From positions 124,001 through 188,000 of the forward strand of contig QPGO01000047.1 in NCBI GenBank assembly GCA_008632985.1: a DNA stretch of 64,000 nt. Direction: 5' to 3'. A program made the position numbers and the translations under genes. Shown piece by piece: positions 3,089-62,693 of the stretch (its first letter is position 1; each line of letters begins with the position of its first letter). Below the pieces are notes generated by a model. That model made no database searches. It saw only the letters and a program-made list of their open reading frames with translations, and had not been told where the DNA came from. The stretch is from Psammoneis japonica (Eukaryota).

Positions 3089-4282
3089 ATGGCACTTACT
3101 TACGCAACGGACGCTCACTACATTGGATTGACTGTGTGTCTCAGTGTATCAGCAGTCCTTTCTTTGACTGGTGATGCATGCATTATTTACAGGATTGTGA
3201 AAGGGAAGAAGATCGATAAACTATACCATCGCTTGATGTTGGCAATCTCGATTTCAGACATCGTGTTCACACTGGCCGCGTTGCTGAGTCCATACATGAT
3301 GCCGTCAGTGACAGGCATTGTTACCGCTAGGGGAAACACTGCGTCATGCTCGGCATTTGCGGCGTTTATTATTGCTGGAGTTCTTGCCGTTAGCTCCTAC
3401 TGCAGTCAGCTCAGTTGCTACTATCGTCTCATGATCAGACATGGATACAGTGAGGAGACGTTGGCACGGCGCTTTGAAAAACCCGCTCATTTGGTGACAT
3501 TTCTCATCATCATTGTCTTTGTATCTGTCTGTCTGGCTTTGGAAGGGTTTAACCCAAATAAGCTGAGAAACGCGTGCTTTATTGAGTACCTGCCGCAGGA
3601 CTGCTTTGATAACGACAGTGTTGAATGCACTCGTGGCTTGTACGCAATTGAGCTGGCCCATTGTTTAGCTGCACTTGTCCTGGCATATTTGCTTGTTGCA
3701 CTTGTCAATACCTTTCTTGTATATTGGACGGTAAGGCAGTTTACAAGGAAGTGCGACCGACGTGCTTCAAGGAGGAATTCCCATGTTGGTGATCAAATGT
3801 TCCGTCGCGAGAGACGTGTCGCCGTTCAAGCATGCCTATATATGCTAGCTTACTTGAATACCTTCTTGTGGGTTGCGAGCACTGCTTTTGTTTATTCTCT
3901 TGTGGTCCCTTCGGGAGAAAAGCCGGGAAATGGAATCTATGCTTACCATTGCCTCTGGGTTTTCTTTGTGCTGCTTCAAGGCTTCCTCAACTTCTTTGTC
4001 TATATTCGACCCCGCTATCTTCAATGGAATGAGAACCATTCAGAGAAGTCTTGGCTTTGGGCTTTGCGAAAAGCAGTGTTTGACGTGAACCCACCTCCAA
4101 CCGCCATTTCTAGCCGCCGAACTAGTTCTCCTCCGTTGCACACCAGTCGAGCTTCGTCGTCATCTGGAATGAAGCGCGGCACTTCTTCATTCAAGAAGGG
4201 ACAAAGTATACCTCCTTCATTCAAGAGGGAACAAAGTGTGACAACAAATGTGTCTGTTGAGAAGGAACAAGAGGAATGTTGA
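3089..4282 (+). CDS. GPCR-like 7TM protein (cAMP-receptor/Git3-like)
   Basis: 397-aa intronless ORF with seven hydrophobic segments and motifs YHRLMLAISISD, GNTASC, C..DSVECTRG, LQGFLNFFVYIRP typical of diatom GPCR-like proteins. Confidence 0.85.
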   Translation: MALTYATDAHYIGLTVCLSVSAVLSLTGDACIIYRIVKGKKIDKLYHRLMLAISISDIVFTLAALLSPYMMPSVTGIVTARGNTASCSAFAAFIIAGVLAVSSYCSQLSCYYRLMIRHGYSEETLARRFEKPAHLVTFLIIIVFVSVCLALEGFNPNKLRNACFIEYLPQDCFDNDSVECTRGLYAIELAHCLAALVLAYLLVALVNTFLVYWTVRQFTRKCDRRASRRNSHVGDQMFRRERRVAVQACLYMLAYLNTFLWVASTAFVYSLVVPSGEKPGNGIYAYHCLWVFFVLLQGFLNFFVYIRPRYLQWNENHSEKSWLWALRKAVFDVNPPPTAISSRRTSSPPLHTSRASSSSGMKRGTSSFKKGQSIPPSFKREQSVTTNVSVEKEQEEC

Positions 4283-6269
4283 GGTCCAGTACATCCATCT
4301 ATAAATTGGCATGACGGACAGCTTGTTAGACTCCATGCTCATAGCAGGTACTTATTTTCACGTCATCTGTTTCAATTTCTGCGATTGAGTGAAACAAAGA
4401 CGCACAGATGAGCGATGGAGTGAAGCAAGACTGATCGATTCGTGCAAGGGAAACAAAGGCGTACGAAAAAGCAATGGAGTGAAAGCAAAAATGAGCGACA
4501 ATGTCAATTTTGCGCCAAGCGTTCTGACGCAATCGAGTGAAGCAAGAATGATCGATTCGGGTATCGACTGGCCTAACGATATCATTATTACTGGCTTCTA
4601 TAGACTTGTTGGTTGAGCACAAGTGATAACAATCTGAAACTTCTGGTGAGGCTCCGTCTCATTAAAGTGACGGGACCTACAATTGCGAGTGGAAAACAAT
4701 GTTGTTCAAGTTCTTTGACGAAATAAAGAAAATGGCTAGCACGGACTTGAGTAACCCCATCGGGATTACTACGCTCGCCTGTGCTGTTTGGTCGAGGCAC
4801 GGCGATACATGTGACTAAATTGGAAATCGTCGCTCCTGGCCGAAATGAGAAAAGATGAATATACGCAAGGGCTGAAGCCAAGAAGGAAAGCGAGAGACTG
4901 CGACGCAAGTGGTCGACCAGGTGCTTTCACAATGTGGTGGAAGATTTCTGACCTAGAGTGCATCCAGGGGCGCGGACGGCGTCTTTGCTTATGAAAATGT
5001 CGGATTTCGAAAGGCGTTATACAAGTAGCGTTCTCATGTGCTTCGCGATAAAAGAAAGCTGCTCCAAGTTGTGGCATGTCGAAACTGGCAGGTACGTTTC
5101 AATTCCGGATGTCATTTGTTGTCACGAGAATATACCGAGACGATTCTAGAACAAATTATTCCAGTCTTGTAGCGAGCTGCTATCCCGTTGATATTGCTCA
5201 CTCAAACTGTGCCACTGACGAAACGCGTCTCTTCCCCTCGGAACAGGGAGAACACAGGCAAATCATGGTTGCACCGGTGCAGAGTGCTTTCTTGGACTAG
5301 ATGTCAGAAGACGTGTGCTGCCGTTTGTTAACAGAAGACCTACATGATGCCTCTCCAGTCGAGGAGGAGCTACTACTGCAGCTGCAGTCTTTGTACTCGA
5401 ATCTCGAATCCCTTCGTTTTGCGGCCTGCAACGCCCTTCAACGCAGCTTGGAGAGCAAGAGAAGGAACGGCAAATGTTGCCTGAAGCTGAAAAGATTGCA
5501 GTGCTGTTGGATTTGTTTGGCACGACGATCATATTGGCATCGCACAAAGAAGCAGAAATAGACCAACAACACGACAAGGCTTCAATTTCGACGAGACATG
5601 CGAATCCCGAGGCCAAAGATGCGCGCTAGTAGCTGCAAAATCAAAATGCTGCCATGAAGAGTATTCCCATGCGATGCTAGAAGCTTTTCTTCGTTATGGA
5701 GATTGTGACGCCAAGGTAAATCTTATGTGCAACTTGATTGTGGATTCATTCTACTTCTTCTCAATGTCCTGTTCGCACACAGATTGGTTTTTCCATGGTG
5801 TGCCTCAGACCGGTTTGTGCACTGTTGGGAGTGCCGCCAAAGGGTGTTTGGTAGAGAAAAATGTCTCCTACCCATGACGATTGATGGTGCCTTGCGAGAC
5901 GACATGGTTGCTCTTGAAACTGGTCTTGCCTACGTTCTTCCTTACAGCGAAGTTGCTGGACGACACAATCTCGGGAGGCATCATGTCTCAAACAAGCGTG
6001 GGGCACACAAATGAAAGCTTGGTTATTATGTGTCATCCTGTCGATAGTTTGTCCATACAGCCACGATAAAAGCAGTGCCGGGCCTTGAATCGGCGTCACC
6101 ATTCGTTTGGGACTCGTGTCGGAGGAAAAGTTCTCGCAGCACCAGCCACAGCAGGTCTACGGCAACACAATCCACAATGTCAAGATGAGTTTTTGCACGC
6201 TCAAAACAAAAACATAATATGAATTATAGACCCAATGCATTGGCTGATTTGTCTTTTTTTAGTTTATAG

Positions 6270-6930
6270 ATGGTGGGCTTCCGAAACGGCATCGGCTTGC
6301 ACATTCCTGATGCGAGCCTGAAATGTCGATTTCTCTTCCGATGGCGTTGAAGCAACAGAACCAATTTCCGAAGCGGCTTCCGTCTTATCTGAACACGTTC
6401 ACATGTGACTTGAGGGCCTGAATTTTTTCTCTTCCACTCATCCAGACAAACAGTCTCAACTGCATTCCATGAGAGTGGGCTTCTGAATCGGCATCGGCTT
6501 GCACGTTTCTGATGCGAGTTTCTCTTCCGCTGGTGTTGAAGCAACATAACCGGCTTCTCCAAAGTGGCTTCCATTTCATCTGAACACGTTCACATGTCAC
6601 TTGCGGGCCTGAATTCTGTCTCTTCCACCTGTTCAGACAAACAGTCTCAACTGCATTCCACGAGAGTGGGCTTCTGAACTGGCACCTGCTTGCACGTTTC
6701 TGATGCCAGCCTTGATTTCTCTTTTGCCAGTGTCAAACAACAAAACCAACTTCTGAAGCAACTCATTCCACCTCAGGCCTGAAATTGATCTCTTTCTCTT
6801 CCGTCCATCTTGAGAAACAGTCTTGACCACATTCCATGAGAGTGGGCTTCTGAAAAGCATCGGCTCAAATGTTCTCTTCCGCTGGTGTTGAAGCAACACA
6901 ACCAACACTTCCAAAGTGGCTTCCAACTCA
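6270..6930. repeat. Degenerate tandem repeat, about 180-200 bp unit, about 4 copies
   Basis: Motif gtgggcttc(c/t)gaa..ggca.c.gct recurs near 6273, 6475, 6666 and 6842. Confidence 0.8.
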
Positions 6931-7599
6931 TTGTCTCTTTGACCCATCTTGAAAAACAGTCTCTTGACTTCTTCCAAACAACTGGCACAAAACTGCAATG
7001 CTGTCAATGTGCAAGAAAGCAAAAGTGCAATGAGTGGATGAACAAATGCCACATGGAAAGAGAAAAAGCAACAACACCATCATTTCAACAACACACACTC
7101 ACCCTGCATTGCTTTGTTGCTGGCAAGTTGGCTGGCCAATTGCACCAAAAACACCCAAACAATGACAAATTGAGGATTGGCTCCTGTCATCATCACCAGA
7201 ACCACCAGCACATTAAGTCTTCTGAGTTGCTTTGTGCAAAAAAGACACTGTGTGAGATGATGCAAGCATGGGTGATGGACAAAATCATTTGGTCCAAAGG
7301 TGTGAGCTGTTTAGACTCTGCTCCACAGTGGAGCATGCACAAAACCTTTTTTTTTAACCCACCTTTGTTCACAGACCATTCCACCACCAAGAAGACAAAA
7401 TGTCACCATGTTGTGGACACAATGAGGAGAGTTAAATCTTCCAATGCCACAGATTGCCAGATGTTGCTGTGAATTGGCTGCGCCCAACACCAGAAGATTT
7501 GATTGTTTGTTGTCCAAATGATGTCAAGCCAAAGAGACAACACACTGGCCCCACCAACAATGATGATGCAATGCCAAACCAACATGAACAAGCACAAAC

Positions 7600-8090
7600 A
7601 GAAAGAAACAGAATGAGTGTGTGCATTTTTGTGTTTTTTTACACAGCAATTGCAATGACACACTCACACCTTTTTTGCAATGCTGCTGCTCTTTGTTCTT
7701 TCAGAATCCAAAGAGAAAATGACCCATTGCCATCCAGAAGAGCTGTGGTGTCCTTTGGGAGCAGTTGAAAAAAGCAAGAAAAGAAACAGAATGAGTGCGC
7801 ATTCACACATTTTGCACAGCAATTCCAACAACACACTTTCCCTTTTTCACCCCACCAATGATGCTGCTCTTTGTTCTTCCAAAGCTTCAAAGAGAAAAAA
7901 AAGCATCACCGTCTGCACAAGCTGTTGTGTCCTTTTGTGGCAAAGGCAGAAAAGAAACAGAATGAATGATCATTCATGTGTTTCACACATCAACTCTGAT
8001 GACATGCTCATGCCTTTTTTCCCAAGAACACTGCTGCTCTTCATTCTTCCAAAGTTTCAAAGAGAAACAAAGCCATCAACTTGGAGACCC
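7600..8090. repeat. Degenerate tandem repeat, about 175 bp unit, 3 copies
   Basis: aaagaaacagaatga...tgctgctct...caaagagaaa starts near 7602, 7780 and 7951. Confidence 0.8.
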
Positions 8091-9884
8091 CAAACTGCAA
8101 ATGATGCTGCAGCTGATGGAGTGAGCTGCAAGAACCTGCTGGAGCATCTCCATGTCTCCCATGAATGACGCCATTCCATGTCAAGTGAGTGACTTCTGTT
8201 TTCGAGTTGAGCTCATAAAACCATTCCATTTTCATCAGTCATCCAACTGCGCACTTTGTTGGATCAACAGAGACAGCATCATCAATCACCAATGCTGCAA
8301 CATCACAAGCAGAGATGATCTGCAAAACAATGTGGATGCCAGCAAGAGATGTGGACACAGAAACATGCAACAGCCTCAAAGTGACACTTGCCGAGTGAAT
8401 CATGTTCTCTCACAATTGCTCTGCACATGTTGCTTGCACCTTGTGCCACTTTTGGTTCATTGCCACTTTTGGCTTGCTCAAAAAAATGAATGAGTGATGC
8501 AGTGATGAGCAATGAGCAAGATTTGGATTGTCAGCTTTGCTTGGCGCCTGTGGTGCTGCACACGCAGAAACCATGACCCTGTGACAACAAAGGAGCAACA
8601 AGTGTCTTCATCACCACAGGTGGCGCAAATCCAATCAAAGTTCAGGTTGGGTTTCCTTGGTGAGAGGATCTCAAATCCAGCCCCAAATGGATTTGCACCA
8701 CCTTCGGTCTCATGAAGTTAAATGCGTGAACACCCATCTCCAAGAGTGTCACATTTGGTGCAACCAACTGGCCAACCCGCCCACTGAGCACAGTCTGTTG
8801 AGCTCATGGTCAAGAGAGAAGCACAAGCAATGCTTGCTTGTGCTTGACATGTTCAAGTCAACAGCCAAATTATGAGCGAACCGAAGGCAGCACTGATTTG
8901 AGCATCGGCAGATTGCCTCTCAGTGCCTGAAAGGTTTTTTGGGTGTGCAGTTGTGAAGAGCCTGCAAAGAATGGAAGGGAACAGCAGAAGGAGGCACAGC
9001 AGCAGCTGCAGTGATGGTGGAATAGAATGGAGTAAATGCAGTGGATGTGCGGTGTTTGGTTCAAGGGACAGGGAACGTAGGAGCAGGAAAAGTTGAGGCG
9101 AATCGAAGGGCATGCACAGAAAGATGGAGGAGGACTGCATTGCAGCTGAGAGCCTGAAGAGCCCATTGGGATGGAGAGGCAGTGTGGAAGGTGCTGCCAA
9201 AGTGGTCAGAGGACAGGCAACACCATGCAGAATCAGCCAATGGAAGGAGAGCAGACAGAGAGGACAAGGCGTGGAGAAAGGCGGAGTGGGAAGGGTCAGA
9301 GTGCCGAAAGTCAGAGGGAGAGGACCAAGGGGGCTTGGGTTGAGACCGGACGGATGTGAATGTAGAGCCAAAGAGGAGGCAATGAGCAAAGAAGCCAAGA
9401 CCACCGAGGTGATCAACGGTGAAAGGGAGAAGGAAGACGCCGTCATTGTTGAGCGAAGAAACAACAAGGGAGCCATCAGCAGAGGAGGGGAAGGGCCAAG
9501 AAACTTCCCGAACACAGATTTATGTTTATATTTAGTTTTTCAATTTTATTTATTCAATGCATTCATGATAACGGATTCTTGCTATCAGGAAATACAATTA
9601 GCAACGGAAACAAAAATGAATAGAGTAGTCAACACTGTAGGTTATTGTCTTCCGTTTGGAAATTTCGAATTCTGACAGCTGACATAGTGGTCGAGATTTT
9701 CAGCGTTACGGCGTGCATTATTTGGCCATGACCCATGACCATGTGCAGCGCACAGCTCAAGCAACAAGCAAACGGGGCTTTCGGCTTTTCGTGCACGGCA
9801 TACTGTTACTTTCTCTGAGTCATCCCCCCTGAGACGCGCCAGTACTGTATACAGTACGTACATACTTGACGGTCCATCACAAGA

Positions 9885-17181: not shown

Positions 17182-18581
17182 ATGTGGAAACGAGCTGTAA
17201 GAGAAAGCCTTGCCGCTGGCACTAAAGCGTCAACACAGTACCGTCAGAAATCATCCACTTCCTTGCATAAACGGGCTGTTCAGGCCTTGAGCAAGCTCAA
17301 CAACAGCTCGCCACCAAAGAAAGATGCAGCGAAGGAACAAACAATCAAGTTGAACGATGATGTGGCATTTGACGTGAAAACAGATTTCGCTGTTGTTGAG
17401 GAAAACAAGAATCAAAGCAAGACTATCAAAACAAGTGATGTAGCACCAAAGATCAAATCGGAACCGTCACAAGCTGTCGAGACACCAGCCATGCCGACTG
17501 CTCCATTTGTTGCCGGCCAACTCCATGAGTTTGCTCCCAAAATTGTGGTTGCCGGGGTCGGTGGTGCTGGCGGCAATGCAATAAACAACATGATTGCCAA
17601 GGAGTTGCAAGGTATGTCATCATCGATCCCAATTGCAGTCAACTCGATTCGCCTTGATTATTAATCTCTAATCACTTACCGCTCTATTCGTGTACAGGAG
17701 TGGATTTCTGCGCTCTCAATACGGACGCTCAACACTTGTCAACGACGCTTACCGACCAACGATTACAGTTGGGAGCTGACTTGACGCGTGGCTTGGGATG
17801 CGGCGCGAACCCAGACGCTGGGCGTATGGCGGCGGAGGAGTGCCGTCAGGATATTGAAGACTTTCTCAAGGAGGCGCATATGGTTTTCATAACTGCCGGA
17901 ATGGGAGGTGGTACCGGGACTGGAGCTGCCCCGGTGGTAGCAGAGATTTGTTACCAAGCTGGTATTCTTACGGTTGCGGTGGTGACGACGCCATTTACGT
18001 TTGAAGGAACTCACCGAAAGAGACTTGCACTGGAAGGAATCGAGCGTCTTCAGGATGTAGTCGACACATTGATTGTGATTCCCAACCAAAACTTGTTTGC
18101 TCTCGCCACTCCTGAAACGTCCTTTGTTGATGCATTTCGAATGGCGGACGATGTTTTGCTCGGTGGTGTCAAGAGCATTACGGATCTCATGACGTCTCCA
18201 GGATTGATCAATTTGGATTTTGCTGACGTTCAGTCCGTTATGCATGGAATGGGTAGTGCTCTCCTGGGAACCGGAGTTGCAGAGGGTGAGAATCGCGCCG
18301 TCGAGGCTGCGCAGCAAGCCCTAGACAATCCCCTCCTCACCAAGGACATGGACATTAGTACGGCAAAAGGAATGCTCGTCAACATCACAGGAGGAAAGGA
18401 CATGACACTTTTTGAGGTGGACAAAGCGGCACAATGTGTTACCGAAAAAATCAAGGATGAGTCAGCAAATATCATTTTTGGTAGTGCTTACGAGGAGGCA
18501 ATGGCTGGTTCGATTCGGGTCTCGGTTGTGGCCACAGGCCTCGACACGAACGGCGTCGACGGAGCAAACACATACTACTAG
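17182..18581 (+). CDS. ftsZ: FtsZ, probably mitochondrial (alphaproteobacterial type), 2 exons
   Basis: Intron 17612-17697 joins [15 protein letters not shown] to [11 protein letters not shown]. Tubulin motif GMGGGTGTG, plus IPNQNLF and GLINLDFAD. Basic, Ser-rich N-terminal extension. Confidence 0.95.
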
Positions 18582-19344
18582 AGCGTGGCGTTTTGCAGGG
18601 ATCGATAAGTAACCCTTTCATAATTATTGAACTTTGGATCGTTTTCTCTTGATGCCGAGGTAACGTAGATCGAGATTGCCACCGGCATTGTTTTTCATTT
18701 GTCGCACATACTCAACAGAAGATGTTGCAACCGAAAGCCAAGGTGTGTATCACATAATATGCTCTTATTGCGTTGTGCTTGTAGACCGATACCGCTCAAT
18801 ATTCCAGTTGGTGTACTGTACCACTTCAGAACAACACTTCTGCGTTTGCCAAAAAGCCGGTGGATATCCCAAAGTATTCATGCTCACCCATGAGTGTCCA
18901 ACCATTATTCTTTTTATTTACAGAAGTACCCGCCCATGCCCTGAGATGTCTCCGGTGTCGCCCTTCCAGAGAGTCGGATCGGCTGACTATCGTTTTTTAA
19001 GGCCAGCGACATGATAATTCCACTGTCATGCTAGGATCCAACGAAAATACAAGCGACGCTCTACTCTTGAGGTAAATTTTGTCATCGTCAAGGAGCGAAT
19101 ATGGTAACTGTCGTAGTATCCTTTTAAAATTTGATAACAGGATATTACAGGGTGCGATCAAGAATTCTCATCATAATCAGGCCACGGGTACGGCTAGTCG
19201 TATCGATGTCAGCATACCTACCCCGAGAAACATGGTAAGAATGAACAACGGTCTCCTCTTGTCCCATTCTGTCCATACCGGTTACCGTATTCCAACAAGT
19301 TTTCTGAGCCTTCGTACCGGAATTGCTGTGATCTGAATGGCATC

Positions 19345-19760
19345 CGCTCTTGCAGCAAGGACCAATGACAGATATTAATCAGATGCTATCCTAACAGTTG
19401 CAAGTCTACCTACATTTACCTAAGAACTGCCACTGAGTATTCATAATACGATGGCCCTTATTCCTTGCTTTCTCCTCTCTTGACGACTTCTGGATTGTTC
19501 GTAAAGAACCACAAAATGAAGTTCCCAACCTGTCCTATTCTGTCCGCAACGGAAGTGCTGTGATCTCAATGGTACCAGCTCTAGCAGTAGTGATCAACAA
19601 TAGACAATAATCAGATAACTAACCTAAATCTTGTACATCTACCTACCTATATCTAAGAAAGGCCACCGGCTACTCATAATCCGTTGATCCTTATTTCTTG
19701 TTTTCTCCTTTCTTGACGAAGTCCGGATTGTTCGTCAAGAACCAAAAAATAAAGTTGTCA
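19345..19760. repeat. About 235-bp tandem duplication of the 3' end and 3' flank of the LRR gene
   Basis: 19458-19523 (minus) encodes NFILWFFTNNPEVVKRGESKE*, versus NFIFWFLTNNPDFVKKGENKK* at 19691-19756. Flanks also align. Confidence 0.75.
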
Positions 19761-20921
19761 TCGCTGCGCGGACCTGCCAAGACATGTGGCCAAAGAGCTG
19801 CAGACACGTTGTCGCGACGCAGCAAGTGTCTTCCTGCACTATTCATGTGAACGTAGCAATCCATTTCATCTTGCGTCTCCTCGTCAACCGTCGGCATCCA
19901 CACCTGGTCAGCAGAATACGCAGCTTCTCCAATGTCCTTGGGTGTGGTTGTAAGCGACAAGCAGCCGTCCAGCTGGAGATAACGAAGCCTCGGCAGCTGA
20001 AGAATTTCCTTTGGAATAGACGTCAAGTGTTCACACCCAACCAGACCCAAGACACTCAACTTTGTGAGCAATCCCATCTTTGGAGGAAGCTCGAATAATT
20101 CGGAGCAATTTATAAGCTTTAACCACGTCAGATTGACAAGATTGCAAACGACGACTTGCAAGAATTCATTCAAGCCGGGGCCGTAGTTTTCAAGCATAAG
20201 ACATTGAAGCTGTGACAGCTTCCCAACTTCAATCTCGGGAGTTTCGTGAGTTTCTTGCAATCCACAAGATAGAGTTCTTCAAGTTGCTGTAACTGTCCTA
20301 TTTCAGGGGACAACTTCGTGAGAGACCGGCCAACGTGTAACCGCAGCTCCACCAAGTTTGTCAACTGCCACAATTGATCTGGCAACTCTTTGAGACTTTC
20401 GCAGTGGCGAAGGTCAAGGAGACGCAGTTGCTGCAGCTGCCCGATTCCCTTTGGCAACTCTGCAAGACTTTTGCAATGGCAAAGGTGAAGTTCTCTCAGT
20501 TGCTGCAGTTTCCTGATTTCCATTGGCAACTCTTCCCGATTCCCGCAGGCAAACTTCTGAGAGCACTGCAATTGCACAAGTTCAGCTTCTTCAAGCTTGT
20601 CAATTCGCACACTTCATTGGGCAAGACAACGATGCTCCGGCACTCAGTTAATTGCAATTCTTCAAGTCGCTGCAGCTGCTCAATTTCTCGAGGGATCCGC
20701 ACAAGATTGATGGAACTCACGGCCAAGACTTCAAGTCGACACAACAAGCCAATTTCGCACGGAAGCACAACCAAACTGGGGACAGAGCACAAATGCATTT
20801 CTCTTGCATTGATGCACTTCTCGTGCTCCAGTGAAAAAGTGTGCAACAACCGCCACTTTGGCAGTCCCGCAGCTTGTTTCATGGCAGCGAGGATCAGGTC
20901 GGAAGGGTCGTCATCGTCCAT
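19691..20921 (-). pseudogene. Leucine-rich repeat protein, frameshifted, 5' half TpA-converted
   Basis: LRR units (LPxEIGxLxxLxxLxL..C) spread over three frames, with shifts near 20535 and 20240. Diatom-type C-terminus N.AGR.LL...LWP.VL. Confidence 0.85.
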
Positions 20922-21029
20922 TGTTGTTGCTCTTGTTCCCTTGCAACCGGGCTGTGAGAGCAACGCACTGGCTCAAAGTGAGCGTGTTGACAAAAAAAAC
21001 TGTTGGTGATTTCAAATGCCATTGACGAC

Positions 21030-21435
21030 CGTGCGCCGGGCCATGACTCGTTGTGTGTGTCAAGAAAGCATTGCGCGATGCTTTTCTTGTGTTTCTTTTT
21101 GAAAAACGAGCCAGCTTGCACTGCCAGCACTTGTGCTCAAAAGACAATGTTTCGTTGTGCGGTGCAAGTGAAACCGGGCGTGCTAACTCCCAAGGGGCTG
21201 TCGTCTCTCGTCTCCACGTGTGCATTTAGAGGGCCTGCCGCAGTTGTTCTCTGCGACCTGCGCCGGGCCATGTCTCGTTGTGTGTGCAAAGAAAGCGTTG
21301 CGCAGTGCTTTTCTTGTTTTTCTTTTGAAAAGAGATCTTGCCAACACCAGCACTTACGACTGTTCAAAAGCCAATGTTTCGTTGTGCCGCACAAGTAAAA
21401 CCGGACGTGCCAACTCCAAACGGACCATCGTCTCT
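21030..21435. repeat. Direct repeat, about 228 bp unit, 2 copies, upstream of the LRR pseudogene
   Basis: tgcgccgggccatg.ctcgttgtgtgtg...aagt.aaaccgg.cgtgc.aactcc starts near 21032 and 21259. Confidence 0.85.
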
Positions 21436-21742
21436 GTGTTGACAGGGCTGTGATGCAATGTCATAGAGCAAAAAATGAAAACGCACGAACCAAAGCGCCA
21501 TCAAAGAACGTGAAGTGGCTTATGTAGTTTCTGACCACGACATTTCACGTTAATGACCCTCGTCTGGCCGCCACCGAAAACATCAAAAACAATTCTGATT
21601 TTGTCATTTTCATTTGACGAAATCTACAGGAAACGCTGGTAGAATTTCTACGTAGAATTTATCTTATGTAGCGCGACGCAATAGCGCGATAGTCGCACGA
21701 AGTCATCACACGCGCAGTCATCGGCAGATCTTGATCGGCACC

Positions 21743-24278
21743 ATGGCGTCTTCTCTTTTGCGAACGAGCGTTCGACGTTGTGTGACGACGGGTCGTATCA
21801 CACCACGGCGTAATGATTTTATCAATAAGAGAGTGTTTTCAAGTAGTAGTGTGGCTGCTGCAGTGTCAACATCGTCTGAGCAACACTATGAGGATTCGTC
21901 TCGCGCGTCATTGCCGTGGATGGGAGCAGCAGCGGCGGCGGCACTGGCAACTGCATTGAATACTGACAACAACAACAAGGCAGAATGCTGCGGAATTGCA
22001 GGTGTTGTTGGGGGAGATAAGGACGATGCCAGGTAAGATACTTATGGCCGAACGAATTCGCCGGACGCTGTGTTCCCGGTGTACTTGATTAATTTGATCA
22101 TAGACGTGCAGAGGAAGCGCAGGGATTACCATAAGTGAGGCGTTGATCATACTTACATCATCAAACTTGCTCTTGTTCTATTTTAGACAATTTCTTTTGG
22201 AAGGACTGACTATTCTCAAGAATCGCGGCTACGATAGCGCCGGACTAGCTACGGTCCCGGTAGAGGGCGGAGCCATGGTATTGACAAAGTACGCCAGTGA
22301 CGGAGACAAGGCTGATAGCATTGAATTAGTAAAGTCCAAAAGCGAAGCTTCTTCGGGCCATCCTATTGGTATTGCTCATACGCGTTGGGCCACTCACGGA
22401 GGAAAAACAGATGAAAACGCGCATCCTCATACGGATTCTTCTGGCAAGATTGCTCTGGTCCATAACGGTACTCTGAACAACGCAAATGAGTTACGGAAAG
22501 AACTCCAAGACCTGGGCCACGTTTTTACGAGTCAAACGGATACCGAAGTCATTGTCAAACTCATTGGTCATATCCGAGATAAGGACCCCAGCAATATCTC
22601 TGTCAAGGATGCTACTCAGCTCGCCTTGGATCGCTGTGACGGTACGTGGGGCCTCTGCATCATGTGCTCTGACACACCCGACGAACTTGTGGTGGCGTGC
22701 AATGGATCACCCATGGTGTTGGGGATTGCCCACAATCGTACCTTTGTTGCGAGTGAAACGTCGGCCTTCAATCGGTACACCAAGAACTTTATCAGCATGA
22801 AGGATGGAGAGATTGGTGTTTTGCACGCTGACGGACGAACTTTGGATTTGACGCGCAAGCAGAAAGCGCCTGATCACAAAGTCGAATTGTCGCCAGATCC
22901 ATTTCCTCATTGGACGCTAAAGGAGTAAGTTGTAATGGTTGTATGTGTCGCTACTGTAAGTTAAAGGCAACGGGCTTACCCTTTTGGATCACCTTGTTCT
23001 CGCTCAGAATGACTGAGCAACCTGAAGCCATGGCTCGAGCCCTGGGATTTGGCGGTCGGTTGGCTCCTGACAAGGTCTTGTTGGGTGGACTGGATAGTAA
23101 CTTTGACCGCATGTCTAAGATCCGTCTCTTGACTCTGAGCGCCTGTGGAACGAGTCTCAACGCAGCCAAGTACGGGGAACGACTCATGAAGCATTTGGGA
23201 TCCGTTGACAGTATCGTGTCCATTGACGCTGCAGAAACTGGCCCTGATGATTTTCCTGTCTGCAAGGAAACGTCAGAAAGTGGTGTCATTGTTATTTCGC
23301 AAAGTGGGGAGACCAAGGATGTCCAACGTGTCGTGTTGACTGCCATGGACAAGGGTGTGACAGTGATGAGTGTGGTCAATGCCGTGGGTAGTCTCATTGC
23401 GCGCACCACAAAGCTGGGAGTTTACTGCAACGCCGGACGGGAAAATGCGGTTGCATCGACAAAAGCATTTACGACTCAAGTTACTGTACTAGCACTTATT
23501 GCATTGTGGTTTCGCGAAGCCCGTGACAAGCTCGAGGGCTTGGCGCCCTCTCAAGAAGCGGTTCGTCTCAAGGAGGCACTCATGCGGCTGCCCATTACTT
23601 TTGGAATGACCATGAAATCGCGTGACAAATGCCGTGAAATTGCCAAACGACTGGAAAACAAGGAACATTGTTTCTTATTGGGCAAGGGGTATGGCGAACC
23701 GGTGGCACAAGAAGGAGCGCTGAAAATCAAGGAAATGTGCTACCTTCACGCAGAGGGGTACAGCGGAGGCGCACTCAAGCACGGGCCCTTTGCCCTGATT
23801 GAGAACGATGAGACGGGAAAGAATGGTGCGACCCCAATCATTATGCTCGTTCTCGACGATGAGCATGCCCAGCACATGCGTACTTGTGCGGAGGAGGTAA
23901 GTTTTTGGCAAGAGAGTAACAATCATGGGATTGCCGGGCCTGCACTCATGATGCTGGCGTTTATTTATCGTGTAGGTCAAGGCTCGGGGTGCTGAGATTA
24001 TAATTATTACGGACAAGGCTAGCCTTGCACAGGGTTTGGACGACGATCCTATTCTCATTCCGTCCAACGGTCCAATGACTGCTCTTGGTGCCGTGCTACC
24101 GTTGCAACTGATTGCTTACGAACTTGCTATGCTACGGTGAGTTTAAGTTGTGCTGCCCTTTCATATTTTGAAGCAAATCGGCTCTTCCTCTCATCAAGCG
24201 TGTTTATGAATTTGTTAATGTAGTGGCATCAATCCGGATACTCCACGAAACTTGGCCAAAGCAGTTACTGTAGACTAG
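21743..24278 (+). CDS. glmS: Glutamine--fructose-6-phosphate transaminase (GFAT) with N-terminal presequence, 5 exons
   Basis: Motifs [53 protein letters not shown] and C-terminal [11 protein letters not shown]. Introns 22033-22186, 22925-23007, 23897-23975, 24137-24223. Confidence 0.95.
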
Positions 24279-32232: not shown

Positions 32233-32954
32233 GGTGATGGTGGAGATCGTTTCGTGACAAGTGACAAGTGAAAGCGTTGACACTTTATTGTGGAAGCCTA
32301 CCATACACGCATACTGTACAACGAACCTTCGTACGTATCCTGATCGTGGCTTCAAGTTGAAGAACAATGAATGACGTAATCGACTGCAATGGTACTGTAC
32401 GACGTGTGCGTTCTGTAACTATTCTCTAATGAGAGCTTTTATAACTGCAAGAAACACCATTTTTGTCACAAATAATAAATGATAAAAAGGTCTAGTAACG
32501 GCAAATTGTGTCTTCTAACTTGTGTTGCGAAAACCGGTCAACAGGGAGACGTCATTGGTGGACATCATGGCATGATGGATGGAAGTCTTCTTTCGCCGCT
32601 TCCTTTTCGGCTCCTCACTTCCCACCGCTCGCTCTCAACCCGCGCCTCCCTGGCAGTCTCCCGCTGCTCTCCACAACTCTGATGCCTCCTGCTCTGCCTT
32701 TCTTCATGCCCCCTCCTCCCCTGCGCTGACTTCACCTGCTGCTGCGGAGCCCACCTTGGCACCACCGATCGCTTTGGCAGCACACATCGCTCTGCATGCC
32801 AAGCTGCAAGCAGCACCCAGTGCCACCTCTCTTCTTGTGCCACTTGGTTCCTTCCCCTGCCCTGTCCACACACCAAATGCCCTGCTGCTCGTCGCTGTGC
32901 CCCCCTCTGTCACCCCCCCGCAGCCACCACCGCCGCTCTGAGACAGCTGCCTTG

Positions 32955-33200
32955 ACACCATTTTGCACCCTTGGCAACATTGTGCCCTTGGCCACCTTGT
33001 GCTTTCTGTTGTTTTGAACCCACAGCCACCATTTTGCACCCTTCTTAATTTTGCGACCTTTCGCATTTTGCACATTTTGAGATTTTTTGCCCTCGGTTTG
33101 TGCCCTTGGCAGTTTTGCGCCCTTTGAAATTTTTGCCCTTGGCCATTTTGGGCTCTTTGTCATTTTGTGCCATGAGCCACAATTTTGCCCCCTCTGAGTT
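32955..33200. repeat. Cluster of short ttttgc(a)ccctt(ggc) motifs
   Basis: About 8 variants of tgcccttggc / ttttgcaccc in about 250 bp. Confidence 0.65.
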
Positions 33201-33840
33201 GGCATGCTGAGTTGCACCCCAAAGTTGGCATGCCAAGTTTTCCCCCAAAGTTCGAGTTTGCCAAGGTTCGACACACCTGTGGCAAGTCGCCCACGTGTTT
33301 GCCTCCCAAGCCAGCAAATTTTGGTGGTTAAATTTGGGTTTGTGTTTTGCTTCTTTGGAAAATGTCTCATTTTCATTGAGATGAGTCGGCTTGACAACTT
33401 GTGCCATTTTGTGGGGCTGAATGAGTTGTGAAGGTGTCTGCCCACATGTCAGTCATGTGTTGTGATTGAAATCATGGGGAGTCACTTTTGGGTGTTCTTT
33501 GGCGACCATGATTGTGTTTTAGAACTTTGACTCCAAGGCTTTCAACCAATCTGACCTCAAATCCATCACTGCAGACTCCTCAAGCAAACTGTGGAGTGAC
33601 AGGATTTGAACAAAATTTCAGTTCATCACACATGATCATGTGTGCTCGCAGCTCCGCACGCAGCACATGATGCACTTTGCTTTCAAGCCACTTGGCTCAC
33701 AAGAACGACAACAACAGCTCTGACATCATGACACCAGTCTTTTGACTCCTGTGGTGGTCTCTGCATGGAGACTCATCTGCTGTTTAGACAGCAGTGAGGA
33801 GTCATTGTTTTCTTCCACCCAATCATCTTCAATTTCTGTC

Positions 33841-33930
33841 ACTTGCCAAACTCGCCAAACTTGCCAAACTCACCAAACTTGCCAAACTCATCAAACTTGA
33901 CAAACTTGGATGCCTTGCCAAACTCGAAAA
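33841..33930. repeat. 9-bp minisatellite (AAACTYRCC), about 8 copies
   Basis: acttgccaaactcgccaaacttgccaaactcaccaaacttgccaaactcatcaaacttgacaaactt. Confidence 0.9.
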
Positions 33931-33999
33931 ACTCACACCGCTGCAACAACAATCCTGGGCCAAAGCAGAAAAGTCAAGGGGGGGTCATCCCCACATTCA

Positions 34000-35230
34000 T
34001 CCCAAAATGGTGTTTGTTTCCGAATGCAAAAAATTGTTTGCATTCACACCAGATCATGCAAAAAATGAGAACCACCAGGCACTGCAGTCAAAGCATGACA
34101 ATGATGCAATCATCAATCTTTCTTGAAAACACAGCGGGGCAACCACAAACTTTTGATCCACGTGTGATCTTTGACACAAAAAAGGAGCACAGCTGGAAGA
34201 TTTGGTGTGTCAGATGTGACGCTGATGATGCCCCCAGTGTCAGAAGGTTTCTCCAGCTCGTTGACCTCTGCTTCACAATGGGCACCCTTTTCAGCTTCAC
34301 TGTCATCATGAGAGCCCCTCTTCGTCATCCAAAACTTTCTTCTGTGCCTCTTCTGGCTGGGTCTCCCACACCACAAAGCCATCAACAGAAGCTTTTTGCT
34401 TCAGAGATGCTGGGGTTTCTTCTTCTGTCTTGTTCATTGTTGCTGGCTTCATCCTTTGCTGCATCTTCAGCACCACCTGTTGCTGCTTCTGGCTCTTTTG
34501 CAGGCACTTGGTTTTCTTTGTGATTTTGCAACGGATTTTTGGTGCTGTGTTCTGGGGTTGGGGGGAAGCTGTTGTTTGGAGCATCATCCTGTTCTGCATC
34601 TTCAACACTGCCTTTCACTGCTTCTGGCTCTTTTGCAGGCACTTGGTTTTTTTGTGATTTTGCAGTGGAACTTCCGGGAATCATTGTTTGGAGCATCATC
34701 CTGCGCTGCATCTTTGACACCACCTTTTGCTGCTTCTCTGGCTCTTTTGCAGGCACTTGGTTTTCTTTGTGATTTTGCAATGGATCTTTTGGAATCTTGG
34801 CACTGTCTTCTGGGTTTGGGTGGGAGTTGTTGTCTTGGGCATGTTCAGAGTTAAAATGTGCAGCACTGACTGTGCCATGTGGGTCCATTGCTGGGTCCAT
34901 TGTGGCTGACTCTTCTTTGTCTGTGACGTGTTCAGATTGGATGTGAGAAGTGCAGACTGTGCAATTTGGGACCATCGCTTGCTCCATTTTGCCCGACTCA
35001 CCTGACCAAATGGCACTGCTTTCCATTTTGTCCTCCTGGGCAGGTTCTTCAATTTGTGGACCTTCCTGCTGGTGCCCAGCCAACAACTGATTTTTGTCAT
35101 TGTGCTCAGCGTCTGCTCTGTCTTGAGACTCACCCTTGCACTGGCACTTCTCAAACCCACCTTTGTTGACCTCTCTGCACTCACATGGCTTGTGATTGAG
35201 GAAACTTCCAGCAGATGAGTGTTGCCTCAA
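34000..35230 (-). pseudogene. Relic low-complexity acidic protein with 3 internal KENQVPAKEPE repeats
   Basis: ORF 34382-35230 repeats K(E)NQVPAKEPE. DNA motif ctggctcttttgcaggcacttggtttt occurs near 34489, 34624 and 34738. No Tyr. Confidence 0.55.
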
Positions 35231-36666
35231 TCATTCTTGCACACTCTTCCACTGATTTTTCATCCTTGTGGCATTCGTGGAAGTGGTTGCAGTCGCTGCA
35301 ACTTTTGTCATCATCAAACACACAAATTGGCGCCTGCCCCCCCCCCCCACACAATGCAGATCAACCAGAAATGCAGATCAACCAGATTGGATGGTGCTGG
35401 AAACTTGTTTTTGGCAGGGCCAGCATCTGAACTCTCAAGCTTGTCACTGGTGCTGTCATGCCTTGGAACCTGTCAGGCTGGACCCTCTCCTCTCTAACAC
35501 CATGCCTCTCATTTCCATGGCACTTGTTTTCCAGATGCTTTGTTTCTCAGAAAGAGCATCAAGGCTGCAGTGCAGAGGTGCACAACAGGGGGCAGACTTT
35601 GTGACCCTGTGTTTGGGGCAGCTCCCAATTTGCCTGCATCTTGCCGTGTCATTTTGGAGCAGGTGGAGATTGTGTCAGCCGGCCCCTGCACCAAATTCCT
35701 GATTTTTGTTCCTGTGTGTTTTGTCATCCAGCCCACAAGTGGCTGAAGCTGGCAACTCAAGCAGAGGTGCCAAGTTTGCCCCCTCTTGCTTGCGTGCATT
35801 TGTTTCATCCTAAACATGCACCAGGCAGGTGCCCCAACCTCCATGCTGTGGAGCCAAGCTGGTGCTGCGTGGTTGTTCGTGCCTCCCAACAGACAACTGG
35901 CTGGCACCCTTTGGTTTTTCTGCAACTCAGCTTTGACTGTTGAGAGGAGTGCTGCTGCCCCTGCTGTTTTTGCTTCCTTCTGTGTGTCCTCCAGCTGCTG
36001 CCTGGCCAAGTTTTTTGACATCCCTGTGGCACAACCTGCAGACTGAAGCACCGCCCACCCCGACTCGGAGAGTGCTGCATTTTGCGCGCACTTTTGAGTT
36101 TGTGAGAGGGCATCAGCCAATGCAAGCATGTCTCAGCCTGTGTTTGAGTTTGTGCTGGCACACCTTGTGCTGCATTTTCCTTCCAAAATTTCAGCATGTT
36201 TTGGCGTTTGAACAAACGCCGCCTGTGTGTGATGGTCAACACGGTGCACCACAATGCTGCTGGCACACTGCTGAAAAAGTTGCTCTGGTTGTTCTTGCTG
36301 GACCCTTGCAAGTGCAGCACGATGCCAGGCACAAAATAATGACAGATGCTGCGTGACACGAAAACAAAGAGAAGCCAGCTTTGCACAAAAAAGTCACACA
36401 CAACAAAATTGATGTGTGTCGTGAAAGCATGATGTGGCAACAAGTGATCTAAATATCCGGGTTTCTTCCCGATAGATTTATGAGAACCCCATTCGGCATG
36501 GCTGATGTGTGAGTTCGCGCGAAGAAAAGTTTAGCATACTTTCTCACAAAGTCCGTTTATTATCATGCTCATTATGAATATCTTTATAAAACGGGTTCGG
36601 ATTCACATTTTGAGAGCTCTGTCAGCAAAAATCCACATCAAAAGTGGGAGACAATGAACTTCACCC

Positions 36667-53254: not shown

Positions 53255-53791
53255 TTGTGGGGTGCGTCAAACAGGTCTCACGGAAAGCAAGCCCTTAGCC
53301 ACAATTCTGACAGGAAGTGGAGTGCATGTCCAGAAAAAGACATTGAAGCCTGCAATGGCGATAAGGCTGATTGCATGGCCACTGCAGATGACGCATCAAG
53401 CCAATTCAAGTGCATGATTCAGCCCACCAACTCAAGTCATTGTCGCTGCATCCAAGAAGAACGAAGCTGGACCGAAAAGATTCACATCTGTGAATGCGAG
53501 GCAAATGAGTGGCATCAGCTTGGTCATGACCTCAACAGAGAAGTTCAACCTCACCCATTCATTGAATTGTCTTGTTCCATTTTGAGTGACAGAACTCACG
53601 TGACCTTTGCCGCTGGGAACAATGGCGCACACGTCTCAAAGCTTGGGGCTGGTTGTGCATTGCCATGGGCCAATGACTGTGCAGCTCTTACAAAAAATGT
53701 GCAAGCTTGCATTTTCTGTTGCGTGTGGGTCACAGAAGCCATCACATCTGTCATGGAATTACCCACCCCAAGAGAGCTTCAGCTCATTTGA
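53255..53791 (+). pseudogene. Tyr-free relic ORF, beta-propeller/FG-GAP-like after back-conversion
   Basis: IHICECEANEWHQLGHDL reads IYIYEYEANEWYQLGYDL if TG/CA are reverted to TA. Confidence 0.45.
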
Positions 53792-54174
53792 TGCTGCTGG
53801 TTTCGCTTTTTTTTCATGTCATTTCACTCAAAACCAGATCCCTTGATCTTGTTCAATTTGCACATCTGTGAAAGAACAAGGTGGAAGAAAACAGTTCAGA
53901 TGTTGCATGTTGCACTTTGAGGATGCAGTCAATTGTTAAGGCAAGTGTGGGCATGTGTGAAGAGCAAGAGTGGGTCACTGCACAGCAGGCTGCCCACTTG
54001 AGGCATGTCAAGTTTTGTGCGACCGAGGTGTCATTTTTGCCAGTGGTGTGAAATGAAACCTCAGCAAACTCTCATTGCAGCTGTTGAAAGGATGGATGGT
54101 CAGCACATTGTTCGACAAACCTGAACCCAGCTTGCTTTGAGCATTGCTGCTCACGAAGTGTCGCGTCCATTTTC

Positions 54175-55243
54175 ATGATGACATGTGCACATTGGTGTGC
54201 ACTGCTGCCAATGGTTGCAAAGGTCATGTTTGATGCGATGGCGCAAGGTGTGTCAATTGCTGCAAAAGCAAGTCAAGACATGCTTTGCGCTGCTTTGGCT
54301 GCACCACGATTTTTGCGCCGATCGAAAGCCACGATGACTCCTTTGTCCACCTCCAGAACATCCTGCGCAACACCATGCCTGCAAGCATGCCTTTTGACCA
54401 CAAGGACTGTGACTCCACCCTTCTTCACAACGCCATTCAAAACTGCACACCTGCAGAGGACATGCCAGTTGATGCTCTGTCTGCCAGTCCTCCTTTGACT
54501 TGTCCATCGAGCATGAAATCGATTTGTCCGACCATTTTCAAAACATCCTTCGAGAGCATGCGCCCGCCGCAATGATTGCCATCCTGACGTTTTCCGACAC
54601 TTGCGAGATTTTGTCAAATTTCACTGGTGAGACCATGTCAAAGCTGCGCACTGCATTCCACGAGTTCTCTTTGAAGACCAAGACTGTTCGTGAAACCGCT
54701 TCGACCTTGCACGAGATCATCCATGACTCCTTGAAGACCTTCATCACGAAGGCACGAATTCAGGCTCACGTTTGGAAAGAATGTATGACGATGTCGTTTC
54801 AGACACCAATGTTGTCATTAGAATGTTGGTGGACAACAATTCAAGAAGCAACTGACAGCTCTGTCACACTTGTTCAAACTCAGGCCCGCACTCTGTGTGA
54901 CAAATGCGAGACGATGCCGTTTTGGACACCAAAATTGTTTTGCATCCAGAACATTGGTGGACGAGAGTTCAAAACTCGTGAAGGAGCTTTTAATCTGGGT
55001 GCGAGTGCGGGTGAGCAAGATGTCAAGAGTTGGGGACGTTCCTTGTGCCCCGATCCGAATCATGCGGTGAATTGGGCCAGTTGTTTGACGTGTGCGGCAA
55101 GAGGGGCATGGTGTGTTGTAGAGCGGGATCAGCTGTTGTGCAGTTTACATTCGGAACCTTGGCGCAAGACGATTCTGTTGAGAGTTTTCTGTTCATTGCA
55201 TTGGATGGTGGGATCTAGCTGTGCCATTGCAGAGCGCACATGA
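54175..55243 (+). pseudogene. Tyr-free relic gene, frameshifted, unknown product
   Basis: Overlapping ORFs 54285-54575 and 54500-55243 read as protein-like text with C/H at Tyr-like positions. Confidence 0.5.
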
Positions 55244-55520
55244 CAAGAGCAAGTGTCCAAATAGTCTCCCTGCTTTCATTTCGTCCGCTTCGTCAAAAAT
55301 GCCAAAGGAAATGCTGCCTCCATCGCTTGAAGAGCCTCTCCAACCGGTGGAAGCGAGATTTAAGTGCAGCTGTGCCAGTGCAGAGCACATGCAACAAGAA
55401 CAAGTGTCCAAATAGTCTCCCTGCTTTCATTTTGTCCGCTTCGTCAAAAAAGCCAAAGGAAATGCTGCCTCCATCGCTCAAAGAGCCTCTCCAACCGGTG
55501 GAAGCGAGATTTAAGTGCAG
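55220..55520. repeat. Near-identical 150-bp tandem duplication
   Basis: caagtgtccaaatagtctccctgctttcattt...gcgagatttaagtgcagc occurs twice, 150 bp apart. Confidence 0.92.
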
Positions 55521-56447
55521 CCAATGAAACGCAGCTTCACCGGCATTGCGAATCACCGCATCAGGTTTTTCCTTTGGAACGCTCGGCACGCGACCAATTG
55601 TTTTGAGAGAATTGGCAATCTGGTGCTGCTCGCAGACACTTTCCAAGCAGTGGTGCATTTCGGAAACAGCATCGTCAAACAAGATCACTGGCAAGGAGGT
55701 GCAAGCATCCTCCAGTGGTGTGGATCGTGCGCCCGCACACACAATGTGAATTCGAAACTCCGTGCAAGGCCTTTGAACCATCAATCTTGAAGGCACCAAA
55801 ACTTTAAGGTCTGACAATGTTGTGGAAGAAGGGGAAGTGAGAAGTGAAAATCGAGAACGGATGGTCACGGTGCGAGCTTGCGATGAATGAATTTGTTGTT
55901 CCTCACCTTGCTGTCAACAACAAGCTGCGGCAGACGGGATTCATTCAAGGCGGGCAGCATTGGAGAAAGCTTCACGCCTTTCTATGCGGCGATCACTGAC
56001 ACTGCCATTTCTAGCGTCGGCTCTTGTCCTTCCAACACAGCTGCCCCGACTCGGTGCTTGACTTGCTTGTCATCAAAGGTTCCCTCAAAGTTTGACAACG
56101 TGCGCGAAATTTCGGAGACTGTCAACCGTGTGCCATTTCTCCTCGTCGTCGCAGGAGAGAAGACTCAACTTCTTGGTGCTGTCGCACTTGGCTGCCGTTG
56201 CAGGAAACCATGACTGCAGCACATGGATTGAGACCTGTGCTTGTCGTCATCAACTGGCCCGATTGCTTCCATGTTACTGCCGGCCGACAACGAGAAGGAC
56301 TCTTCAACTTCATCCGAAAAGTCAGTCAAACGAGTCTTTTGAAGCACAAAAGGGAATGAGAGACAATTGGAGTGTGCCCTTTCTGCCCCATTCCTGGCTT
56401 GTGCCTCGTGCCGCACCCCGTCTGTTGTCACGAGATTGTCTCGAGAT

Positions 56448-56537
56448 CGTGTCCCGCGCATCACCGTCCCACGTCCCGCGTCTCACCGTCCCACGTCCCA
56501 CGTCCCGCATCCCGGCGCGTCCCGTGTCCCACGTCCA
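56448..56537. repeat. GTCCCRC short-motif array
   Basis: About 8 copies of (c)gtcccac / gtcccgc upstream of ORF 56689. Confidence 0.8.
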
Positions 56538-56688
56538 AAAGAAATTTGTAAATTCCAAAAGCCTGGGTCGTGCCAGCGTGTGTGCTTGTCTGTGTCACCA
56601 AAATGCAAGCACGACATTGCACGGCACAGCAACGGACGACAAAAACCGACAAAACCTGTTCGCAGCTTTGACCTGCTGCTGAATCACC

Positions 56689-62109: not shown

Positions 62110-62693
62110 CTCGCTTCTGCCATTGCGTTTACTTGCCGTGCCAATTGTCGCAACTTTGGAGCACGATTACCCAAACACGATCGTCGTGTCCCTCTCTGAT
62201 GGTTTTTGCACTCACAGAGCTCTCGCCTCTCGCGCGAGTGGGAATGTGCATTCACGTCGTTACTTCGAGAGTCAGTCAACCATCGCTTGCGCAAACAATC
62301 TCCTTTACAACGTGATTCATTCTTCCTTCTTGGCATGCGAACATCATCATGCCGAAAGAGTTCACACAACATCGATGCAAACGCATGGTGGTGTGCACGG
62401 ATGAGAGAGGACGAGCCGCGCCGCTCGAATCTCGAGGCGCGCGCAGCAGAAATAACGCGCATGGCATGATGGGTGGTCGTGTCAGAGTAGCATTCGCAAA
62501 ACACAAACATCACGATTGATTCAAGAAAGCACCTCATAATAATTGTCGTTCGATAAGGAGTCTGCAAGTTTTTCTTTTCTGACTGTCGGACATCGAAATC
62601 GAGTGCGTTCCAAGAAAGTTGAGATTTTATTAGTGGCTCTCTGCTCTCTCTAGAGGACCAGGAATTGCGCAATACAACAGCAGTTTGGATAAA

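Follow-up and report, generated by a model that had tools for sequence, protein, structure and literature searches.

TG/CA differences between tandem copies suggest a regional TpA-directed transition process at the margin of a TA-free island in Psammoneis japonica

We analysed a window of 64,000 nucleotides of Psammoneis japonica DNA (assembly GCA_008632985.1, contig QPGO01000047.1, positions 124,001 to 188,000 of the forward strand; all coordinates below are those of the window). Within it lies a 227-bp head-to-tail tandem duplication whose two copies differ by an excess of sites that read TG in one copy and CA in the other. With moderate confidence, we favour the reading that a regional process turning TpA into TpG or CpA, of the kind described in the alga Bigelowiella natans, hit the two copies independently, and that these hits fell at the margin of an island of DNA almost devoid of TA.

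According to this reading, a regional process causing A:T to G:C transitions specifically at TpA would act on the island. TpA is its own reverse complement; therefore, a hit on the A of the top strand gives TpG and a hit on the A of the bottom strand gives CpA. The copies would have been struck independently after the duplication, so that hits on opposite strands in both copies would leave a TG/CA doublet, and a hit in one copy only would leave TA/TG or TA/CA. TA may have been ancestral or transient, as the same doublet would result if TG or CA first gave rise to a later TA and this TA then became the other of the two. What we propose is thus that the sites went through TA.

Differences between the two copies

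Global alignment of the two copies left 25 mismatches in 177 aligned columns, namely 15 transitions and 10 transversions, and 10 of the 15 transitions fell in pyrimidine-purine (YR) dinucleotide steps. Between copy 1 and copy 2, these steps paired as CG/CG nine times, CG/CA twice, CG/TG never, TG/CA three times, TG/TA once, TA/CA once and TA/TA never (Table 1). The strings on which the earlier note on this DNA had based its comparison were all located: GTGCAAGTGAAACC at 21162-21175 against GCACAAGTAAAACC at 21389-21402, TGCTAACTCC at 21181-21190 against TGCCAACTCC at 21408-21417, and CTGTCG at 21198-21203 against CCATCG at 21425-21430.

In 100,000 random placements of the 15 transitions over the aligned columns, TG/CA doublets averaged 0.21. 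The probability of at least two doublets was 0.014-0.015 and that of at least three was 0.0005-0.0006, which confirms that the TG/CA pattern between the copies is real and beyond chance. The same note had described CpG as abundant in the block, and so it is: we counted 29 CG, with an observed/expected ratio (o/e) of 1.06, against 4 TA (o/e 0.17). Its statement that mutation followed duplication holds trivially, since the copies differ.

We do not claim that the hits in either copy were restricted to a single strand. At the five TA-type sites copy 1 has TG or an intact TA and copy 2 has CA or an intact TA, an arrangement that arises by chance about once in 16 cases, and the orientation is mixed in other arrays of the window. 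As a separate observation, copy 1 contains an imperfect palindrome (21061-21089, AAGAAAGCAT..ATGCTTTTCTT) that folds better than shuffled sequences (DNA fold z -3.15). A conserved structured element was rejected as well, as the fold is lost in copy 2 (DNA z 0.02) and the RNA folds behave alike. No Rfam family matched at gathering score in the window, and three matches within 20900-21800 were at chance level (E 2.9-9.7).

TA-free islands around the repeat

Six TA-free islands with a total length of 12,362 nt make up 19% of the window and contain 31 TA (frequency 0.0025, o/e 0.02-0.06), against 2002 TA (frequency 0.0388, o/e 0.57) in the remaining 51,638 nt. The longest gap without any TA measures 1067 nt; at the outside density, a stretch of 500 nt would lack TA with a probability of about 4e-9.

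Only TA is missing from the islands, plus CG in three of them. AA is not depleted (o/e 1.16-1.40), and across the islands TG and CA reach o/e values of 1.48-1.85 and 1.28-1.79, respectively. The total of YR steps is nearly the same inside (0.235) and outside (0.243), and the loss of TA and CG (0.059) is largely balanced by the gain of TG and CA (0.052). Islands d2 and b have lost TA and kept CpG (CG o/e 0.86 and 0.74); islands a1, a2 and c are CpG-poor (CG o/e 0.27-0.34). In the CpG-retaining islands, GC content is raised by about the amount expected from the loss of TA (51.1 observed vs 51.5 expected, and 49.9 vs 50.7).

Island b spans the 5' half of a leucine-rich-repeat (LRR) gene, the region upstream of this gene and most of copy 1. 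From its edge up to about 21464, TA density is about half normal. The focal block is a partly converted island margin, where intermediates such as TA/TG and TA/CA would be expected. An independent contig of 4133 nt (X1) covers 20600-21900 unbroken, with five differing letters and one gap; since it crosses the edge of island b without a break, this edge is no assembly chimera.

The scarcity of TA extends to stop codons, as TAA and TAG together occur 47 times in the 12.4 kb of islands (both strands) vs 1711 times in the 51.6 kb outside, and TGA is raised. The islands contain 94 open reading frames (ORFs) of at least 70 aa, many of them overlapping and open in several frames, which makes these regions a trap for gene callers.

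Duplicated sequences as records of mutation

Self-BLAST yielded nine internal duplicate pairs, all of which were aligned, seven in islands and two outside; those from arrays D, E and F are unit-shifted comparisons inside one array and are not fully independent. Among 38 adjacent double-transition doublets in these pairs, 27 were TG/CA, and the other 11 were spread over seven types. The island pairs contributed 26 TG/CA doublets per 209 mismatches vs 1 per 146 in the non-island pairs (Fisher p 2.5e-11; 6.3e-11 if the focal pair is left out). Independent hits on one strand or the other, with TG and CA as outcomes at the same site, are recorded in 27 doublets between copies, 26 of them in islands.

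This distribution bears on a simpler account, in which an ancestral TG or CA was altered in one copy by a tandem substitution, by a 2-bp inversion (TG being the reverse complement of CA) or by two successive transitions, without any TpA-specific process. It needs an equal number of base changes, and other eukaryotes are known to undergo tandem double substitutions. However, double-transition doublets of other types are rare, and TG/CA is nearly absent from the non-island duplicates, although a generic tandem process should not be confined to islands. We consider such one-copy changes highly improbable.

The confinement of the doublets to islands likewise argues against a purely repeat-triggered process resembling repeat-induced point mutation (RIP). 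Both non-island duplicates have kept their TAs and are not TA-depleted: one (2-862 / 3561-4424, 864 nt, 88% identity) shares 25 TAs between its copies, the other, a tandem at 19318-19756 with a 233-bp unit and 77% identity, shares 10. Duplication alone is therefore not the trigger.

Alignments of three copies add to this record. Neither CG nor TA is left in arrays E and F, and the third copy has TG or CA in eight of the nine variable YR columns of F and in three of the four of E. In array F, one column has CA/TA/TG, a combination with TA as its sole one-step ancestor; one column of array E reads CG/TG/TG.

TG/CA differences also separate the window from paralogous contigs, at 20653-4, 21020-1 and 21023-4. 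Several contigs of the same sample match 20609-21060 at 80-95% identity, a segment to which the LRR gene contributes its 5' half and upstream region, and the repeat unit its first 35 nt. Judging from these matches, the segment appears to be a member of a dispersed family, with an extent roughly that of the island (20338-21184). Beyond 20609-21060 these contigs are unlike the window, so they are uninformative on the polarity of the focal sites.

TA or CG as the ancestor of the focal sites

The most serious competitor of TA is CG. Methylated CpGs would have been deaminated independently on opposite strands, and the TA/TG and TA/CA pairs would be unrelated ordinary transitions. CpG deamination is the textbook source of TG/CA pairs, and it would agree with the two CG/CA pairs between the copies, with two single-nucleotide polymorphisms (SNPs) relative to contig X1, at 21224 (CA/CG) and 21375 (TG/CG), with the strong CpG depletion of three of the six islands, and with the wealth of CG/TG and CG/CA pairs in array D. 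On the other hand, the block keeps 29 CpGs at the expected frequency, nine CpG pairs being intact in both copies, and neither its TA o/e of 0.17 nor the loss of TA with retention of CpG in islands d2 and b is explained. Moreover, CG at 21375 looks derived, because copy 1 also has TG there.

The numbers of intact and altered sites point in the same direction. A model of uniform CpG decay, with nine CpG pairs intact and two changed once, predicts 0.05-0.8 doublets and is rejected (exact multinomial p 0.0087 with three doublets, 0.039 with two); if the CpG rate is taken from the single changes, 0.05 doublets are expected and the probability of at least two is 0.001. The counts under a TA model (no TA/TA, two single changes, three visible doublets) are fitted well enough if each copy of a site was hit with a probability of about 0.85. 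The earlier note had called CpG deamination unlikely. The rejection of the uniform model bears this out, and the two CG/CA pairs and the two CpG-type SNPs speak against it. Taking both sides together, we regard a CpG ancestry of the focal doublets as unlikely.

Several points weigh against our preferred reading of hits at TpA. Parsimony is neutral, as an ancestral TA, CG, TG or CA would each cost six substitutions over the four sites of the earlier note; the claim made there, that a TA ancestor explains all differences by single transitions, is correct without being unique, since CG does so too for the doublets. The rejection of CpG decay presumes equal rates at all CpGs. Two CG/CA pairs do separate the copies of the focal block, and two of the three SNPs listed relative to X1 are of CpG type, none being at TA. 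In array D, 12 CG/TG or CG/CA singles stand beside five doublets, and CpG decay is clearly under way there; three islands are CpG-poor, so their TG/CA doublets could derive from CG. In a test of tetranucleotide contexts, the lost xTAy and xCGy and the gained xTGy and xCAy were uncorrelated (r = -0.28, p 0.30). The islands also lack signs of the viral DNA that is targeted in B. natans, since none of the 94 island ORFs showed a viral or transposon domain in Pfam (92 without a match, 2 LRR) and neither of two island ORFs had relatives in IMG/VR, although heavily mutated foreign DNA could escape such tests. Finally, we infer the direction of change at the focal sites from their context only.

At the level of the window, conversion of TA to TG or CA is well supported by the islands, the doublets, the balance of YR steps and the CA/TA/TG column; the support does not extend to a TA ancestry of the particular focal sites. 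The three SNPs and the one indel listed relative to X1 all lie within the repeat block (21120-21375), and none is listed in the flanking approximately 1 kb. No further copy of the unit was found in the 64-kb window (blastn, word size 7; the best other match was 30 nt long, E 0.011), two degenerate patterns built from the unit had no match in metagenome or viral contig collections, and the same-sample contigs contained no second haplotype over 21061-21900. The stretch was traced to three sequencing runs, all of a single sample and study, with no RNA run among them.

Island genes and the loss of TA

Island d2 contains a 442-codon ORF whose product has no tyrosine at all. Twelve homologues of this protein were found in a library of 1.84 billion proteins (best E 1.1e-38, 33% identity); they look cellular. 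The island ORF itself belongs to no Pfam family. Tyrosine makes up 0.9-2.2% of the nine aligned homologues, and at these frequencies the probability of finding none in 442 residues ranges from 0.018 to 5e-5. Since the homologues carry tyrosine and the island ORF has none, the TA-free state is derived, and this ORF may be a still-open gene rewritten by the loss of TA.

At the 26 alignment columns with tyrosine in a homologue, the window protein showed no preference for cysteine (1) or histidine (2); this tracing of tyrosine to cysteine or histidine failed because the family is too divergent (20-32% identity). In the case of the LRR ORF of island b (20499-20963), 49 candidate paralogues were scored and none reached E 1e-5, and the LRR units on the two sides of the island edge have diverged too far in DNA sequence for alignment. 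A foreign origin of the islands was considered and set aside, as Pfam and IMG/VR give it no support.

Selection rather than mutation bias would lead to an identical end state and to the same doublets, if TpA were deleterious (as UpA in RNA, or as part of a TA-containing protein or nuclease target) and had been replaced by TG or CA in each copy. In eukaryotic transcripts, UpA is as a rule rarer than expected. The abstract of PMC3829696 mentions that CpG and UpA are selected against in cytoplasmic RNA. The 442-codon island ORF is still open and has homologues. However, the depletion is about 15-fold and near-total over 12 kb, promoter or spacer DNA and all reading frames included, and the island edge at 20338 cuts through the LRR gene. 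Strong selection would be needed at each of several hundred sites. In B. natans, the same signature is reported to have arisen as new mutations without selection (10.64898/2026.01.13.699255). We therefore find selection distinctly improbable as the source of the islands.

Comparison with known systems

The closest parallel to the TpA process that we propose comes from mutation-accumulation lines of B. natans (Mettrop et al., bioRxiv 10.64898/2026.01.13.699255). According to this preprint, two integrated viral regions received 231 of the 302 nuclear mutations; A>G or T>C accounted for 230 of these 231, and each of the 230 changed TpA to TpG or CpA depending on the strand, at a rate in the viral regions of about 6e-7 per site per generation. 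It further describes 124 clusters of 1-kb windows that are depleted in TpA and enriched in CpA and TpG, as well as 324 coding sequences with a TpA frequency of 0.0018, and proposes an ADAT2-like deaminase as the agent.

The dinucleotide logic described there is the same as ours. The residual TpA frequency of the islands (0.0025) resembles that of its low-TpA class of coding sequences (0.0018), and the majority of affected ORFs are unannotated in both. In addition, by our reading the run 33001-36000 conforms to the stricter rule of the preprint, which asks for Rho TpA <= 0.43 and CpA+TpG >= 1.52 in three successive windows of 1 kb. The differences are also clear. B. natans is a rhizarian (chlorarachniophyte), whereas our host is a diatom; the process described in the preprint targets integrated viral DNA, whereas our islands show neither viral nor transposon domains, and an LRR gene and a conserved orphan gene lie in them; three of our islands are CpG-poor as well, whereas the main text of the preprint does not contain the term CpG; and direction and rate are reported as measured in B. 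natans, whereas here they are deduced.

By analogy with B. natans, the chemistry would most likely consist in the deamination, within DNA, of adenines that follow T on its 3' side; the inosine so formed would be read as G, and the reaction would be steered to chosen chromatin regions. Both the enzyme and its targeting are what we infer.

RIP in ascomycete fungi is similar in that it is regional, consists of dinucleotide-specific transitions on either strand and leaves diverged duplicates; here, seven of the nine internal duplicate pairs lie within islands that make up 19% of the window. Its direction is the opposite, since RIP converts CpA to TpA and raises TpA/ApT. In the islands TpA/ApT is 0.058 vs 0.61 outside, and (CpA+TpG)/(ApC+GpT) is 1.82 vs 1.25, the reverse of RIP.

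Deamination of 5-methylcytosine at CpG also makes a self-complementary YpR step decay to TG or CA by strand, but the focal block and island d2 keep CpG while losing TA. The CpG depletion expected of methylation decay is absent from the focal block (CG o/e 1.06, nine conserved CpG pairs) and present in islands a1, a2 and c, where CpG decay is probably also at work. Hyper-editing of double-stranded RNA by ADAR in metazoa likewise gives clustered A to G changes next to a 5' U or T, a likeness drawn in the Discussion of the preprint (10.64898/2026.01.13.699255). Unlike our case, ADAR acts on RNA, in animals, and with a mere neighbour preference; here genomic DNA is changed and only TA is lost, AA being at o/e 1.16-1.40.

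Our literature search found no such islands described for diatoms or other stramenopiles and returned only the B. natans preprint, most subscription journals being outside its coverage.

Genomic setting

The repeat block sits in a 780-bp spacer that separates two divergently transcribed genes, the LRR gene on the left and, on the right, a gene for a protein like glutamine-fructose-6-phosphate aminotransferase (GFAT). The block is most likely duplicated promoter or spacer DNA between these two genes in a diatom-like nuclear genome. The LRR gene starts at the ATG of MDDDD... at about 20921. It is spread over three overlapping frames (ORFs 20496-20963, 20170-20610 and 19691-20260), into which introns would hardly fit, and it may be a frameshifted pseudogene or else be affected by indels in the assembly. 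The GFAT-like gene is split into at least three ORF pieces.

For other genes of the window, the best named protein matches all come from diatoms or from the sister group of diatoms. The FtsZ protein is 83% identical to an MMETSP 'Syned...' transcript, 76% to Chaetoceros, 75% to Seminavis, 73% to Triparma and 68-71% to Thalassiosira. A single ORF of 619 codons on the reverse strand (60310-62166) fuses an isochorismatase domain to a tubulin-tyrosine-ligase (TTL) domain. It has 63 homologues at E <= 1e-10, mostly listed with both Pfam domains, and the named ones are all diatoms; identity to the Corethron, Fragilaria and Cylindrotheca proteins is 31-38%.

Table 1. Coordinates of the tandem duplication, its variant sites, the TA-free islands and the genes of the window
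Feature	Position	Strand	Remarks
Tandem duplication, 227 bp	21026-21435		Head-to-tail; Tandem Repeats Finder: period 227, 1.8 copies, 81% matches, 5% indels, score 563
Copy 1, full length	21026..21252		From Tandem Repeats Finder, repeat families D2/D3 and alignment
Copy 2, shortened	21253..21435		Without the last ~44 nt of copy 1; 85.9% identity, 177 aligned columns
TG/CA doublet	21163-21164 (copy 1), 21390-21391 (copy 2)		Secure
TG/CA doublet	21199-21200 (copy 1), 21426-21427 (copy 2)		Secure
TG/CA doublet	21122-21123 (copy 1), 21345-21346 (copy 2)		Adjoins indels, less secure; absent from the earlier note
TG/TA pair	21169-21170 (copy 1), 21396-21397 (copy 2)		
TA/CA pair	21184-21185 (copy 1), 21411-21412 (copy 2)		TA of copy 1 is the right edge of the TA-free island
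CA/CG pair	21069-21070 (copy 1), 21296-21297 (copy 2)		Within the imperfect palindrome; absent from the earlier note
CG/CA pair	21076-21077 (copy 1), 21303-21304 (copy 2)		Within the imperfect palindrome; absent from the earlier note
Island a1	6386-7214		TA o/e 0.02, CG o/e 0.34
Island a2	7433-9521		TA o/e 0.06, CG o/e 0.27
Island b (focal)	20338-21184		846 nt, 1 internal TA; TA o/e 0.02, CG 0.74, TG 1.48, CA 1.63
Island c	32516-36337		3821 nt, 7 TA; TA o/e 0.03, CG o/e 0.29
Island d1	53362-54991		TA o/e 0.05, CG o/e 0.58
Island d2	55512-58662		TA o/e 0.05, CG o/e 0.86 (CpG retained)
Tandem array D	6273-6931		In the region of islands a1/a2
Tandem array F	7602-8080		In the region of islands a1/a2
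Tandem array E	34437-34800		In island c
Tandem array H	32961-33193		In island c
Tyrosine-free ORF, 442 codons	56689-58014	+	In island d2
LRR gene	19691..20963	-	LRR_14/LRR_8 Pfam matches; left neighbour, transcribed away from the repeat
GFAT-like gene	21743..23995	+	ATG at 21743; GATase class II and two SIS stretches; right neighbour
FtsZ gene	17700-18581		Upstream of the repeat/LRR region

Significance

Beyond the focal repeat, we tentatively propose that diatoms have a regional, TpA-specific editing of DNA that would act on host-like genes and promoters, instead of identifiable viruses or transposons, and erase nearly every TA over kilobases, with edges that may cut genes and sometimes with loss of CpG too. 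We hold this broader claim to be plausible, if somewhat short of probable.

The repeat itself is a small read-out, and its value is that of a pointer to kilobase-long TA-free islands in a diatom, of which we found no earlier description. For annotation, such islands carry a warning, as the lack of TAA and TAG stops inflates ORF calls. If our reading is true, tandem copies would serve as natural replicate records of strand choice and saturation.

Also on that condition, a process known from one 2026 preprint on one rhizarian alga would be at work in diatoms too, which are among the major marine primary producers, and there it would affect genes of ordinary appearance. TpA editing would then be an old or recurrent trait of algae of the SAR (stramenopile, alveolate and rhizarian) clade. 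It would have shaped gene sequences to a large and unnoticed extent, tyrosine-free proteins and spurious multi-frame ORFs being examples of the outcome. Its presence in diatoms would also be relevant to the idea that TpA editing is a pathway of genome defence or silencing conserved among eukaryotes.

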